DNA of 64,000 bases from a virus, in the IMG/VR virus record IMGVR_UViG_3300034108_000145, positions 32,001 to 96,000 of that record; one strand, 5' to 3'. The position numbers were made by a program, and so were the translations under genes. Below the pieces are notes generated by a model. The model did not search any database. It was not told the origin of the DNA and saw nothing but the letters and a program-made list of their open reading frames with translations. Of the stretch, positions 30,974 to 41,940 are shown piece after piece. Position 1 is the first letter of the stretch. Every line of letters begins with the position of its first letter.

Positions 30974-33181
30974 TTATCTCATATTTTTAAAAGGACTACG
31001 TGGCGGTCTCATATTTGTACCGTCACTACCCCTAGAATTACCCAGATGTCTAAAGGGGCTCCAATTTAATTTACTAAATTTCTGGGAGTTATCCAAGTTT
31101 TCTTTTGTAACTTCTACACGTTTAGAGAAGCCACGGTTAGATTGTTGCACCTTTGCAAAGGCTATAAGAGCACAAAAGGCTACCAATCTATCCACGTTTA
31201 GTCCATCTCTGTAAGCTTGCATCTCTCGTAAAAGCATAATGTCAGGGATTCTTTCAATACCGTATATGGTTTTTACAATATCCCCGTTTTCTTTTGTCTC
31301 ATGATCTAGCTCTTCTTTTGTATACTCAATACCGTAAGATAGGATGTTACCCTTAAAAAGCGTACCTACGTTCTTCCAGCCATATTCTTGGAATACGTTA
31401 CGGTTGGCACCAATGTCTTTTAAGAATAAGATCATGTCTTTAGGTACTAAGTAACGTTGCTTACGTTTAGAAATCATGTATTGTATAAACAAAGCTACGT
31501 TATTCTCCACTATTGTCCAGGCGTTGTACCACTCTATAAGTATTTCTAAACGCTCATGGGTTTTAGTAAGATCGTCAAAACGACCACACCAAGATGCCAC
31601 TATACCATCCCGTTCAATACTACTTTCTACCACTCCTCCACCAGAGTCTTTTATTACTTCTACAGGATTCTTGTATATGTATATAGAACATAGGGATTCC
31701 GATGTAGTAGTTTTACCTTCACCTACTGGATCCACAGAAGCATAGTATGTGCCAAACTGAGGATCTTTACAAGGTCTTTCGTAAATACAGATGACACCTT
31801 CTTTATCTTCTGTCTTTTTAGATATAGGAAACTCCATAATAGGAATCTTCCTAGACGGTTTGTCTATGATTTTACCTTCTGCGTTTCTAGAAAGTTCTAA
31901 GTATTCTACAGGATATTCTTTATCTTGAATACGCTGCATTTGTTTAGCCACAAGATGCGGAGGGAACACACTCACCTTACGTGTAGCAAAAGCCTCTTCT
32001 AGGGTCCTAGGATGCTGTGAAATCGTAAGCTGGTAAGCTCCTGGATCAAGATCCTTCTTCATCTTCTCAAACTCTTTATCTAGGGCTTCTAAGGCTTCTT
32101 TTACTAAAGAGTTACCATACTGATCAATATAAGGAGGCATTGACCATTGTTCAGGTATAAACAACCCTGTAATACCTGTTGTACCATCTTTATCTACAAG
32201 ATTAGATTCTATTCCATAGAACCCGTTTTCTTCTGGATGGTATACATACTCTTTCATGGGTTCACACTGATCGAGATCACCCACTGATCCTGCTGCAATA
32301 AACTGACCTGTAATAATATGACCAGACTTAAGGGCTGGTTTCATGAATCCATAAGTGTCATTCATCTTAGGTGCGATACCTGCTTCCTCGTGAAAGAAGT
32401 ATGTTACAGGTCCACCGACACCATGTGTAGGATCTTTCTCAAAAGAGTATAAGTTAATTGTACTTTTTAATCCTCTATATGTATCACGATTATTTACTCT
32501 CACTTTAATCTGCTGGTTCCACGCCCCCACCTTATCAGGTTCTGCCGGTCTATACCATGCAGTGTGTTCATTTAAGAAGTTACGATATTCATTAAGAAAC
32601 TTCCATGATCCTTTCTCATTAATGTAGTCTTTAAGACTAGCTCCAATTTTAAGAATAGATCCTTCTTCAAATACCCATTGGTTAATTAACTTAGCCATGT
32701 GAAAATAAGAAGATGCTATCTGACGTTTCTTTAGAATGATAGCGTGCCGCCAATGCAGTTCAGCAAGATGCTCATATAAAGCCATGTGATATTGTGCATC
32801 TCTCACCTTAGCAAAGTCAAACCTCTTTTCTTCTTTATCGTAAATAGGTAAAAAGTTTAACCACATGTAGTAGTCTCTGCTTATATACCATGTACCGTTT
32901 TCACTTTTTATAATAACTCCTTTACGACACTTGTTCTTTTGGTCGTCCCAATATGTTATAAAGTCTTTACTTTTTACTGGAGCAGCACAGTAATACCCTT
33001 GCTTTTGAAACTTACGAGCTTCTGCATTAAAGATTAAACTAGTCTCATCAAAGTTATACTCACCTGGTTCTTTGAATATAGATAGTAAAAAATCTCTAAA
33101 CTCTTCTCTACTATAAAAAGTGGAGACGGTCCAATGATCAACATCGTAAGTAGGTACTTCTATAAATATGTTAGCTTCCAA
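30974..33181 (-). CDS. Terminase large subunit
   Basis: ILKKRQIASSY Walker A-type, FFHEEAG Walker B, YYASVDPVG RNase H-like nuclease, IVENN, NVDRLVAF. Confidence 0.9.
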   Translation of the reverse strand: MEANIFIEVPTYDVDHWTVSTFYSREEFRDFLLSIFKEPGEYNFDETSLIFNAEARKFQKQGYYCAAPVKSKDFITYWDDQKNKCRKGVIIKSENGTWYISRDYYMWLNFLPIYDKEEKRFDFAKVRDAQYHMALYEHLAELHWRHAIILKKRQIASSYFHMAKLINQWVFEEGSILKIGASLKDYINEKGSWKFLNEYRNFLNEHTAWYRPAEPDKVGAWNQQIKVRVNNRDTYRGLKSTINLYSFEKDPTHGVGGPVTYFFHEEAGIAPKMNDTYGFMKPALKSGHIITGQFIAAGSVGDLDQCEPMKEYVYHPEENGFYGIESNLVDKDGTTGITGLFIPEQWSMPPYIDQYGNSLVKEALEALDKEFEKMKKDLDPGAYQLTISQHPRTLEEAFATRKVSVFPPHLVAKQMQRIQDKEYPVEYLELSRNAEGKIIDKPSRKIPIMEFPISKKTEDKEGVICIYERPCKDPQFGTYYASVDPVGEGKTTTSESLCSIYIYKNPVEVIKDSGGGVVESSIERDGIVASWCGRFDDLTKTHERLEILIEWYNAWTIVENNVALFIQYMISKRKQRYLVPKDMILFLKDIGANRNVFQEYGWKNVGTLFKGNILSYGIEYTKEELDHETKENGDIVKTIYGIERIPDIMLLREMQAYRDGLNVDRLVAFCALIAFAKVQQSNRGFSKRVEVTKENLDNSQKFSKLNWSPFRHLGNSRGSDGTNMRPPRSPFKNMR

Positions 33182-34325: not shown

Positions 34326-34495
34326 CTGTAGAGGGTGGACTCGAACCACCAAGGTGAGATTCAATTGATAACACAACGCTTGCAAGCTGGTGGTCTACCC
34401 CATATTATCAATCTATTTCTGCATCACCGCCCACGAGACAGGTGGGTACGTTTGCCAGGGTCATAACAGAGACAACCCAATTTCGTCACTCTACA
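34326..34495 (-). tRNA. Giant non-canonical tRNA-like RNA (GTC anticodon, ~79 nt variable arm, D-loop insertion)
   Basis: Acceptor TGTAGAG/CTCTACA+G; D-stem ACG..CGT; anticodon arm CCCAC-CTGTCTC-GTGGG; T-arm GGTGG-TTCGAGT-CCACC; 170 nt; no encoded CCA. Confidence 0.75.
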
Positions 34496-35014: not shown

Positions 35015-35205
35015 ACTCTTCCAAATGTTATATTTTTTCTAACCTTAATATCTTTGTGTGTAAACTGCCAAAGCTCTGATGTCTCATCTATTATTACAGT
35101 GTACACAGTGTCTGTTTCATGACCATAGTCTGTAACCAACCAAATCACTCCATTACCTTTAGGAGTGGTAACTTCCACTCTATTAGTTGGTTCATACATT
35201 ATCAT
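35011..35205 (-). CDS. Hypothetical small beta protein
   Basis: 64 aa; overlaps both neighbours; VTTPKGNG..LVTDYGHE. Confidence 0.7.
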   Translation of the reverse strand: MIMYEPTNRVEVTTPKGNGVIWLVTDYGHETDTVYTVIIDETSELWQFTHKDIKVRKNITFGRV

Positions 35206-35866
35206 AACTTACAAGAGCTTTATCGTCTCTTTCACAAAGACTTTTATACAATTGTTTATCTTCACTCCATTCTGATCCTGTCCACCATTCAAAACCATAG
35301 AAGTCTGATTTGTACATACAGCATTTCTCATAACCTCCTAATATATAAACATGTGTACAGTCTAACATTTTTGCCACCTCACATTCATACATCTGTGCCA
35401 CTTTTCCTAAGGAAAGTTTTGGCGTCTCATAGTTCCATACAAATTGTGTTGCACAGAAGGCGTCATCATACTTTTCTACAGCTGAGTAACCAATTACTTT
35501 TCCAAACTGACTATAAGAAATAATATTGCCGGTAAACAACTGTTCCCATGTAATCGTGCGTTCAAAACCGTGGTGTTTACAATATGCTTCATAGAGTTCT
35601 CTGTATATAGGTTTATCTTCAAACTTCTCATACATAAAATCAACATGCCTAGACAATCTTTTAGTAGTCTCGTGAGGTTTGTATTTTGAAAGATCTATGC
35701 GTACAGATCTTAAATTATACCAAGCTCCGTCCCAGGGTATCCACCCTTTTTCAAAAGCTTCTGATGCACTCTCACCCTCTTCTAAAATACCATGCGGCTC
35801 TGAGTAAATAAAGTCTTGATCACTCACTTTACCAAAACCATTAATGTGATCAAACACTACTTTCAT
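35192..35866 (-). CDS. Aminoacyl-tRNA-protein transferase-like (ATE1/Bpt family)
   Basis: AFEKGW..LRSVRIDL N-terminal part, ELYEAYC, and C-terminal KLSLGKVAQMYECEVAKMLDCTHVYILGGYEKCCMYKSDF matching the ATE_C pattern (SLG...EI..A...G..YVYLGY....M.YK..F). Confidence 0.7.
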   Translation of the reverse strand: MKVVFDHINGFGKVSDQDFIYSEPHGILEEGESASEAFEKGWIPWDGAWYNLRSVRIDLSKYKPHETTKRLSRHVDFMYEKFEDKPIYRELYEAYCKHHGFERTITWEQLFTGNIISYSQFGKVIGYSAVEKYDDAFCATQFVWNYETPKLSLGKVAQMYECEVAKMLDCTHVYILGGYEKCCMYKSDFYGFEWWTGSEWSEDKQLYKSLCERDDKALVSYDNV

Positions 35867-37383: not shown

Positions 37384-37735
37384 TGCTTAAGAATTTAAAG
37401 TCCAACAAAATATTACCTCTAGAGTGTACTTTTAGCTCTGGGTTAATAAATATCTTTTTCTTGTTCTTTCCTTCTTTTTTAATCAAGCCTTTCTTTTCAG
37501 ACTTAGTTAAACAGTTGCGTACAGATTGTGTACTAGAAAAGATTTGTTTATCATGTGCTTTATTACAAAAACTTGTAAGTTCTTGATCTCCTTCTAAAGC
37601 TAAGAGAGTAAGACAATTTAGATCAGCTTCACTCACTTGTATGTTATATAAATAACAATGGGTTAAGATCTGATATTTAACTATTTGCCAGGCACTCATC
37701 CGCACTCTCTTATCTACTTGGTTTACTAATGCCAT
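37364..37735 (-). CDS. Putative winged-helix DNA-binding protein
   Basis: SVRNCLTKSEKKGLIKK...IFINP recognition helix and wing. Confidence 0.5.
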   Translation of the reverse strand: MALVNQVDKRVRMSAWQIVKYQILTHCYLYNIQVSEADLNCLTLLALEGDQELTSFCNKAHDKQIFSSTQSVRNCLTKSEKKGLIKKEGKNKKKIFINPELKVHSRGNILLDFKFLSIASTES

Positions 37736-38181
37736 TATAATTCTATTTTAAAACTCATATAATCTTCACCTGTGTTGCTCCAGTTTTTATATAGAAGCAC
37801 CGAGGCAGCACCCATACTTTTAAAGATGTGCCACGATGCTCCTATTCTAGCTTCTCCTATTAGATGGGTGTAGTCCATTTCTTGAGCCCAATCTATTACA
37901 TGCTGTATAAGCTGATAGCCTATGCCCTTTCCTCTATAAGAAGGAACGACAGTGAAACTATCTATATGTAATATGTTATCACTCTGCCATGTTACAATAG
38001 CTTCTGCTATTAAACCATTCTTCCCATCTCTCATCCATATTCCTTGACAGTTTTCATTTTGTGTGAGCATAAAGATTTTATACTTATCGTCCCAACGTAA
38101 TTGTTTAGGATGCTCACGCTCAAAAGGTAAACATTCTTTATAATCTTTTAACTTATAAAGAACGGAATATTCAGAGGTCAT
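37735..38181 (-). CDS. GNAT family N-acetyltransferase
   Basis: LHIDSFTVVPSYRGKGIGYQLI acetyl-CoA motif A; ASWHIFKSMG motif B. Confidence 0.85.
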   Translation of the reverse strand: MTSEYSVLYKLKDYKECLPFEREHPKQLRWDDKYKIFMLTQNENCQGIWMRDGKNGLIAEAIVTWQSDNILHIDSFTVVPSYRGKGIGYQLIQHVIDWAQEMDYTHLIGEARIGASWHIFKSMGAASVLLYKNWSNTGEDYMSFKIEL

Positions 38182-41869: not shown

Positions 41870-41939
41870 AATCAGGTAGCTTAATGTAAAGCATCTAACG
41901 ATTAATTAGAAGACGTGGGTTCGAGTCCCATCCTGGTTA
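41870..41939 (+). tRNA. tRNA-like gene with aberrant anticodon loop (CG-ATT-AA; nominally Asn-ATT)
   Basis: AATCAGG/CCTGGTT acceptor, GCTT/AAGC D-arm, TCTAA/TTAGA anticodon stem, GTGGG-TTCGAGT-CCCAT T-arm; followed by CAA. Confidence 0.7.
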
Positions 41940-41940
41940 C

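Follow-up and report, generated by a model that had tools for sequence, protein, structure and literature searches.

A tRNA-shaped RNA with an aspartate anticodon and a long branched arm in a phage, and its relatives in Bacteroidota chromosomes

What is an RNA that folds like a tRNA and carries the anticodon of aspartate, but is built on the body of another tRNA class, and what could a phage do with it? The question is raised by a 64,000-nucleotide (nt) stretch of viral DNA (positions 32,001 to 96,000 of IMG/VR record IMGVR_UViG_3300034108_000145; hereafter the window), in which a 170-nt RNA gene at 34326–34495 on the minus strand runs from position 1 to the discriminator base G73; its D loop contains an inserted hairpin, and its variable region is 79 nt long. 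An earlier note, made from the letters of the sequence alone, had proposed a mimic, a decoy or a mis-charged tRNA. The comparisons reported here indicate that the element is a phage member of a large family of Bacteroidota and phages, in which a class II (tRNA-Leu-like) body is combined with the aspartate recognition set.

Fold and covariation of the RNA

The unconstrained minimum free energy (MFE) fold of the RNA was a cloverleaf of −50 kcal/mol, and the limits of the gene follow from this fold and from covariation. All its parts are given on the minus strand. The 5' strand of the acceptor stem, UGUAGAG (34489–34495), formed 7 bp with 34327–34333, the 3' strand and G73 together occupying 34326–34333; CCA is not encoded, the next base being C. 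U8 and G9 precede a D arm (34448–34486) with a 3-bp stem (34486–34484 with 34450–34448), the loop of which contains G18 and G19 and also a hairpin of 21 nt (34458–34478) with a 7-bp stem and the loop CUCUGUU. The anticodon arm (34430–34446) has a 5-bp stem and the loop CUGUCUC (34441–34435), in which the anticodon GUC (34439–34437) is accompanied by U33, U37 and C38. Two copies of the hexamer UGUCUC are present in the RNA, one within the D-loop hairpin and one within the anticodon loop. In the variable region (34351–34429) an outer 5-bp stem, GGUGA/UCACC, is followed by an internal loop and then by a 12-bp stem, with two small hairpins at the end, its tip holding the motif GGGGUAGACCACC (about 34390–34402) and a small GCU/AGC hairpin. 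The T arm (34334–34350), GGUGG/UUCGAGU/CCACC, has a 5-bp stem and fits the T-loop consensus UUCRANY. Stem lengths are the canonical 7/5/5, and the acceptor/T branch is 7/5 and not 8/5, 9/4, 8/4 or 9/3, the branches of tRNA-Sec and allo-tRNAs.

The stems read in the earlier note (a 7-bp acceptor, a 5-bp anticodon stem, a 5-bp T stem with TTCGAGT and a branched variable arm of about 79 nt with a GGTGA/TCACC stem and two small terminal hairpins) agree with this fold. Its 21-nt D-loop hairpin repeating the TGTCTC of the anticodon loop was seen both in the sequence and in the fold, and its description of a GTC (Asp) anticodon on a class II body, with pyrimidines at 37 and 38 (U and C) and G73, was accurate.

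The folding energy itself was not above chance (z = −0.95, with 35 of 200 shuffled sequences folding as well), and therefore the case for the RNA rests on the comparison of homologues. These were sought in 80 related phage loci obtained through the terminase gene and in 24 further stretches obtained through an exact 25-mer from the 3' end of the RNA, with nhmmer and then with a purpose-built covariance model, R1. The form present in the window, a D-loop hairpin together with a 79-nt arm (hereafter type A), belongs to one phage lineage and was represented by 20 distinct sequences. In these, 99.3% of 1056 cells were paired and 18 of 53 pairs had changed on both sides, a value reached in 0/500 shuffles, and slid controls paired at 36–52%. 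The two long helices of the variable arm contributed three and six covarying pairs in these 20 sequences, nine for the region as a whole, and three more were found in the D-loop hairpin, the stem of which differs from phage to phage (GGGUU/GACCC, UGGCU/AGCCA, AAGUAU/AUACUU) and the loop of which stays CUCAG-like in the relatives (CUCAG(U)U or CUCAGC). The helices of both insertions are thus maintained. Within the cloverleaf itself, acceptor pairs 5–7, two of the three D-stem pairs and three of the five T-stem pairs covary, and in 21 diverse phage homologues the four canonical stems were paired in 100% of 420 cells, with compensatory changes at 12 of 20 pairs.

The earlier note had asked whether homologues would show compensatory changes in the extra arms; these are present, and so the objection that they might be missing falls away. 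By the measure of covariation, the window element is shown to be a real, selected and functional RNA gene. What the covariation shows for the insertions is that they must fold on their own, not that each arm has a separate job.

Two other arrangements of the molecule were considered and discarded. A shifted anticodon register, which would place a purine at position 37, is ruled out by the 5-bp anticodon stem, which covaries in the standard register. Pairing of the sequence GACCACC of the tip motif with either the T stem or the outer stem of the arm is ruled out as well, the motif being unchanged where these stems change; without covariation with either stem, the motif GGGGUWGACCAC is not an alternative pairing partner.

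A family in phages and in bacterial chromosomes

That standard scanners could miss such an RNA had been anticipated, and this was the case. With ARAGORN at default settings, the sole call, both for the window and for the entire genome of 129,765 bp, was a tRNA-Asn(att) at 41870–41940, and the intron mode at default settings gave nothing at the RNA locus. Rfam, searched at gathering scores over the window and at E ≤ 10 over the locus, gave nothing at the RNA, RF00005 included, the same tRNA-Asn(att) being the sole match; the models for tmRNA, YrlA/Y-RNA-like RNAs, viral tRNA-like structures and introns left it unmatched, and at gathering scores no family was found in the 10 bacterial loci tested. 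Megablast and blastn of the region against public phage records returned no match. The RNA was not found in Rfam 15 or in the main texts of the literature searched. Thus, the match to an already described family that the earlier note had allowed for did not appear, and within these sources the family is uncatalogued. An intron-containing tRNA was also tried and rejected: relaxed ARAGORN settings gave a poor tRNA-Thr model, in which the D stem has 2 bp and the real anticodon arm is engulfed by an 'intron' of 86 nt, and the idea is further disfavoured by the continuous range of arm lengths among relatives and by the lack of an Rfam intron family at the locus. A very relaxed run over the whole genome produced 317 calls, that is, noise.

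Model R1 detected the RNA upstream of the terminase gene in 47 of the 80 related phage loci, and in 35 of the 52 having at least 2.5 kb of upstream sequence; six additional weak matches in phage loci (25–27 bits) were tRNA-Leu genes. The variable region spans 15–102 nt in 40 distinct phage sequences and 15–141 nt in the whole family, phage and bacterial. The shortest phage forms, of 85–96 nt, are called tRNA-Asp(gtc) by ARAGORN, and in relatives the RNA gene adjoins tRNA-Cys, tRNA-Met or tRNA-Leu genes. The D-loop hairpin was found in the type-A lineage only; neither the other phage types nor the bacterial samples had it.

When the sequences of the arms are compared, the variable arm is shown to be a site of modular expansion, with an outer stem, an internal loop, a second stem and a tip of interchangeable hairpins. 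The internal loop reads AGAAAUAG / UUGAAUC in type A, CUGAUAAAG / CCUAAAG in a second phage type (type B) and GGAUAAAC / GCUAAC in bacteria. The tip module GGGGUWGACCAC(C) is conserved in sequence in type A, type B and many bacterial copies; the minimal phage forms and many other bacterial copies are without it. A near-perfect AU-rich tip hairpin of about 30–36 nt was seen in three phage loci (L072 5554–5717, L075 3219–3389 and L076 5567–5714), the last of which has this hairpin and lacks the GGGUUGACCAC module, and this suggests that hairpin modules are swapped in and out of the arm. As a separate observation, one 110-nt copy (L028 4690–4799), compared with a 95-nt copy (L009 154–248), carries an insertion the end of which repeats the preceding UAAAG, a repeat that resembles an insertion-site duplication or a symmetric internal loop.

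The positions that vary least are those by which a tRNA is recognised. In the phage copies U1:A72, G2:C71, U3:A70 and A4:U69 were each found in 21/21 sequences, and G73, the anticodon G34 U35 C36 and C38 were invariant. By contrast with ordinary tRNAs, position 37 was a pyrimidine in nearly all of the 40 distinct phage sequences (U in 38, C in one and A in one), and position 33 was other than U in eight of the 40, with G, A and C all occurring; the window copy has U37 and keeps U33. Every one of 64 control tRNAs (23 other distinct tRNAs of the phage loci and 41 of G011, a Cytophagales chromosome described below) had U33 and a purine at 37, and therefore the odd anticodon loop is peculiar to this RNA and does not reflect any general looseness among phage tRNAs. 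The strong determinants of aspartate identity are G73, G34, U35, C36 and C38, and in bacterial tRNA-Asp both pairs, G1-C72 and G2-C71, show strict conservation, according to PMC9976931. The same source gives U1-A72 as the amidotransferase determinant on Asp-tRNA-Asn and G1-C72 as the antideterminant in tRNA-Asp. Judged by these marks, the family joins the recognition set of AspRS with the amidotransferase mark U1:A72, a pair not mentioned in the earlier note and the most telling difference from the canonical tRNA-Asp of the host (G1:C72). The window RNA fits the sequence and fold definition of the family at each point: the UGU start, U1:A72, G2:C71, U8 G9, the 3-bp D stem, the loop NNGUCYC and G73, with a long structured variable arm that includes GGGGUAGACCACC.

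Further relatives were searched with a degenerate pattern of the 5' half, in bacterial contigs (one genome per species) and in viral contigs. The pattern was found in at least 120 bacterial stretches and in at least 120 stretches of viral contigs; among the 80 bacterial matches listed, all were from Bacteroidota except one from an unclassified bin, the carriers including Cyclobacteriaceae, Cytophagaceae/Spirosoma, Aquirufa, Ohtaekwangia, Marivirga, Pedobacter, Arcticibacter, Saprospiraceae, Chitinophagaceae and Cryomorphaceae. A 3' end was not parsed in 29 of 139 pattern matches. Model R1 detected 114 copies of 107–175 nt in 80 bacterial loci, where two or three paralogues frequently stand in tandem. 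Of 151 evenly sampled Bacteroidota genomes, 16 had true members by this model, a member being defined as a match of at least 53 bits and more than 100 nt, since matches of 38–47 bits and 82–87 nt were ordinary class II tRNAs.

The identity marks of the phage copies recur in the bacterial ones. In 82 parsed distinct copies, U1:A72 was present in 81, and G2:C71, U3:A70, G73 and U8 G9 in 82/82; the anticodon loops were CUGUCUC (63 copies), CGGUCUC (11), CUGUCCC (four), UUGUCUC (three) and CCGUCUC (one). The strict parser rejected 29 of 112 copies, mostly from Pedobacter, with a UUGUCUC loop and one U.U in the anticodon stem. Single bacterial copies were also seen with the loops CUGUUUC (Asn-type GUU) and CGAUCUC (AUC); many bacteria have a short (about 108–125 nt) and a long (about 140–160 nt) paralogue in tandem (e.g. 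L140 5234–5561 and other Pedobacter loci), and the long Pedobacter copies have U4:A69 in place of A4:U69. A different anticodon was found in G145, where two tandem copies (L383 / L399, C1:3852069–3852399) carry the Glu loop CUUUCUC at the same kind of locus as the other bacterial members.

That locus is well defined. A divergent gene for a 156-amino-acid (aa) regulator of the Lrp/AsnC family lies about 150 nt upstream of the RNA in 80 of the 120 pattern-found loci listed and in 10 of the 16 model-found loci; its best NCBIfam match is AsnC, at 157 bits (equivalog cut-off 227), vs. 52 bits for Lrp. Other frequent neighbours are SufB, a SufC-like ATPase and an acyl-CoA ligase, and the Glu-anticodon copies of G145 share this AsnC-like/SufB/acyl-CoA-ligase setting. 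The bacterial neighbourhood is thus a housekeeping one and not a defence island. In G011, a 3.65-Mb Cytophagales chromosome with the RNA, 41 ordinary tRNAs cover all amino acids and include one canonical 76-nt tRNA-Asp with the loop CUGUCAC and G1:C72, so that the long-armed RNA is an additional molecule and not the Asp decoder of this organism. The judgement of the earlier note, that the tRNA-shaped RNA is genuine and probably no ordinary decoder, is upheld by these data.

Charging of the RNA and the alternatives

The reading that we favour, at roughly even chances, is that host AspRS charges the RNA with aspartate and that the RNA serves as an aminoacyl carrier off the ribosome, not as a decoder. 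Neither GatB nor a synthetase domain of class IIb or class IIa was found in five near-complete phage genomes of the clade, four of them with the RNA, and therefore the RNA must rely on host enzymes. A discriminating AspRS (GluRS for the UUC variants) would charge a tRNA body disabled for decoding, and GatCAB would then amidate the charged RNA owing to U1:A72, turning Asp into Asn, or Glu into Gln in the rare variants with a UUC anticodon. This second step, proposed because the family has U1:A72 where canonical tRNA-Asp has G1:C72, is possible but doubtful. The AsnC-like neighbour of the bacterial copies is in its favour, the Asp and Glu anticodons of the family match the two substrates of GatCAB, and GatB was present in 16/16 RNA-positive genomes. 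The RNA would then be a cofactor for amide synthesis held apart from translation and controlled by the AsnC-like regulator, and the phage copy could boost the amide-synthesis capacity of the infected cell, as an RNA auxiliary metabolic gene of lake and marine Bacteroidota phages. The D-loop hairpin and the giant arm might act as blocks to use by the ribosome or EF-Tu, or as platforms that recruit or exclude proteins. For the family as a whole, a role as RNA cofactor for off-ribosome amide synthesis, under AsnC-like control and with phages carrying expanded copies, is put forward as a tentative proposal.

Comparison with known RNAs brings out what such a carrier would have in common with each of them. 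The body of the window RNA resembles that of the class II tRNA-Leu in the D stem of 3 bp, the 11-nt D loop containing GG and the long variable arm. It differs from the tRNAs for Ser, Leu and Tyr in its Asp anticodon GUC and in G73, and its branched, modular arm has several times the length of theirs. A73 is required by LeuRS and bacterial TyrRS. The non-proteinogenic tRNA-Gly of staphylococci serves cell-wall synthesis and embodies the same concept, that of an extra isoacceptor charged by the normal synthetase and diverted from the ribosome, although amino acid, architecture and phylum differ from those of the family. Bacterial tRNA-Asp(GUC), as represented by RF00005, shares with the family the 7/5 cloverleaf, GUC, C38, G73, G2:C71 and a canonical T loop; in contrast, the window RNA is of class II, with a variable region of 79 nt instead of 4–5 nt and with the D-loop hairpin, and the family has U1:A72 and not G1:C72 (PMC9976931, and the tRNA-Asp of G011), U37 and not a purine, and a variable position 33. 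The tRNA-Asn of the indirect pathway, which uses a non-discriminating AspRS and GatCAB, has in common with it G73 and the amidotransferase determinant U1:A72 (PMC9976931, PMC4206432), and the RNA would likewise carry Asp; however, the window RNA has GUC and not GUU, so that a discriminating AspRS could charge it, and it is not a class I decoder.

Class II-shaped tRNAs with anticodons foreign to Leu and Ser are also known as nev-tRNAs (PMC3333845) and allo-tRNAs (PMC5389517), but the latter have an 8/4 or 9/3 acceptor/T branch, unlike the 7/5 of the window RNA, and the former are restricted to nematodes; pyrimidine 37, U1:A72, D-loop hairpins and arms of 80–140 nt do not figure in the available portions of these two descriptions. 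The nuclease-insensitive phage tRNAs (PMC10264068) are also phage-encoded and altered in the anticodon loop with respect to the host isoacceptor, but are otherwise ordinary decoders, whereas the oddities of the window RNA are common to the chromosomal copies.

Several results weigh against an aspartate carrier or against its link to asparagine. GatB was found in 126 of the 151 sampled genomes overall, the chance of 16/16 being about 0.055. An AsnB-type match above cut-off was present in 14 of the 16 RNA-positive genomes vs. 84 of the 151 overall, so that the RNA is not a substitute for a missing Asn synthetase, and AsnA was found in four of the 151 and in 0/16 RNA-positive genomes. None of the GatB, AsnA and AsnB profiles over the 151 genomes discriminates in favour of the asparagine reading. 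No AsnC-like gene lay within 3 kb of asnA in the four Bacteroidota genomes carrying AsnA (0/4), and therefore the argument that the RNA sits at the position of asnA is unsupported inside the phylum. The phage copies are without the AsnC-like neighbour gene, and the window copy retains U33, the base found in all the decoding controls. U1:A72 may weaken charging by AspRS, in which G1-C72 helps to position the acceptor end in Escherichia coli (PMC9976931). The long arm and G73 are both recognised by SerRS (PMC7609411). Finally, large arms alone do not exclude decoding, because engineered tRNAs with an aptamer at the tip of the variable arm can still translate (PMC7590224).

These points bear on the alternatives to a charged off-ribosome carrier. 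One, which we consider unlikely, is an odd but working translational tRNA-Asp, for instance a replacement insensitive to host nucleases that deplete tRNA-Asp in the course of infection; the insensitivity, held at the same low level, would come from the altered loop (N33, U37) and the bulky arms. The conserved GUC, the perfect cloverleaf, the U33 of the window copy, the clusters with tRNA-Cys, tRNA-Met and tRNA-Leu in related phages and the share of Asp codons (6% of the codons of long phage open reading frames, ORFs) are all in keeping with such a tRNA; variable arms tagged at the tip can be translationally active (PMC7590224), and nuclease-insensitive phage tRNAs are known (van den Berg et al. 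2023, PMC10264068). Nevertheless, the chromosomal bacterial copies share U37 and U1:A72, beside a canonical tRNA-Asp and at a housekeeping locus, and an origin in a phage arms race leaves them unexplained. Moreover, position 37 is a purine in 64/64 controls and a pyrimidine in 39 of the 40 phage sequences, all four bases occur at position 33, and the other tRNAs of the same phage loci are unchanged. The same chromosomal homologues, located with the AsnC-like regulator, SufB and acyl-CoA ligase, make a counter-defence origin unlikely and so weaken the phage decoy against anticodon nucleases that had been suggested before. Charging by SerRS, the mis-charging of the earlier note, would have the RNA mistranslate Asp codons as Ser or donate Ser elsewhere, and appears to us very improbable. 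SerRS does not read the anticodon, and the invariant GUC, C38 and G2:C71 are therefore left unexplained, while a conserved mistranslation would be costly. The part of this suggestion that stands is the long arm and G73 already mentioned (PMC7609411), but arm length and architecture vary over 15–141 nt although arm geometry matters to SerRS, and a single bulge in the arm stem abolishes serylation (PMC7590224), whereas the arms of the family have bulges and internal loops.

Two further alternatives would give the RNA a protein partner. As an uncharged mimic or regulatory RNA, which we regard as rather improbable, it would titrate or signal to a protein such as AspRS, an AsnC-like regulator or another binder; the arm with GGGGUWGACCAC would then be the binding platform and the phage copy a sponge or decoy, details that are no more probable than the whole. 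A motif conserved in sequence within an otherwise hypervariable arm, in phages and bacteria, the divergent pairing of the RNA gene with a regulator gene and loop features that look unfit for decoding would suit such a role. However, the first four acceptor pairs and the discriminator were called invariant, which suggests that the acceptor end is recognised, as happens in charging, and GGGGUWGACCAC, missing from the minimal phage forms and many bacterial copies, is for this reason not essential to the core function of the family. The other partner, an aminoacyl-tRNA-protein transferase like Ate1/Bpt for which the RNA would be a dedicated substrate in a two-gene phage system, is hardly likely at all. 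The candidate, a 224-aa ORF at 35192–35866 (−), about 700 nt upstream, scores 27.8 bits against Pfam ATE_C (cut-off 25, E 4.2e-6) and, weakly, 21–24 bits against the NCBIfam arginyltransferase models (cut-offs 170–252); it is on the same strand and in the same operon as the RNA, and the pairing is repeated in L104. Most related phages nevertheless lack the gene, which was present in 9 of 104 loci and in G006. Four relatives that carry the RNA and are 92–100% complete (G001, G002, G005 and G007) are without it, the controls G000 and G006 being positive; the RNA was present in three of the seven terminase loci with the gene, no more than the 47/80 overall, and no such gene was found among the conserved bacterial neighbour clusters. 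An obligate system of the two is thus largely refuted, as gene and RNA do not travel together.

Phage setting and meaning of the family

The source virus record is rated 100% complete, with a genome of 129,765 bp and 34–38% G+C in which the RNA is a single copy, and lake-water metagenome runs contain DNA of the window phage and of its relatives. In one run guessed to be RNA, a 160-nt contig of a relative covers 34356–34420, which is no evidence of transcription. The RNA lies inside a late operon of the minus strand. It starts 6 nt past the stop of a 170-aa ORF and ends 20 nt ahead of the ATG of a 235-aa ORF, and therefore, like clustered tRNAs, it must be excised from a longer transcript. On the downstream side are a 92-aa ORF and the genes for the large terminase subunit and the portal, and a gene for a PD-(D/E)XK exonuclease lies upstream; the ORFs flanking the RNA had no Pfam or PHROG match above cut-off. 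The same operon contains an ORF for a GNAT-family acetyltransferase at 37735–38181 (−) (Pfam Acetyltransf_1, E 6.4e-12). The sole tRNA of the phage called by the scanners, at 41870–41940 (+), is itself odd, with the anticodon AUU (Asn), G33 and the loop CGAUUAA, A1:U72, a U.G in the acceptor stem and discriminator A.

To the description of the family, the window RNA adds the type-A lineage with its covarying D-loop hairpin and an internal control on positions 33 and 37. It also adds negative results on the link to a transferase, on GatB, AsnA and AsnB as discriminators and on the adjacency of asnA and asnC-like genes in the phylum. The family also constitutes a natural scaffold that tolerates variable-arm insertions of 15–141 nt and a hairpin in the D loop, which may be of use in tRNA engineering. 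Some Bacteroidetes are reported to have genes for AsnRS, GlnRS and GatCAB but to lack an Asn synthetase (PMC4206432), and the family raises a testable question, that of the role of GatCAB in Bacteroidota that already have direct charging routes. If the RNA is charged and yet kept off the ribosome, nature would here have made a tRNA body, on a wide scale, into a carrier for metabolism or signalling, one that would occur in a major bacterial phylum and would have been copied repeatedly by the phages of that phylum, and this would explain the empty annotation at these loci.

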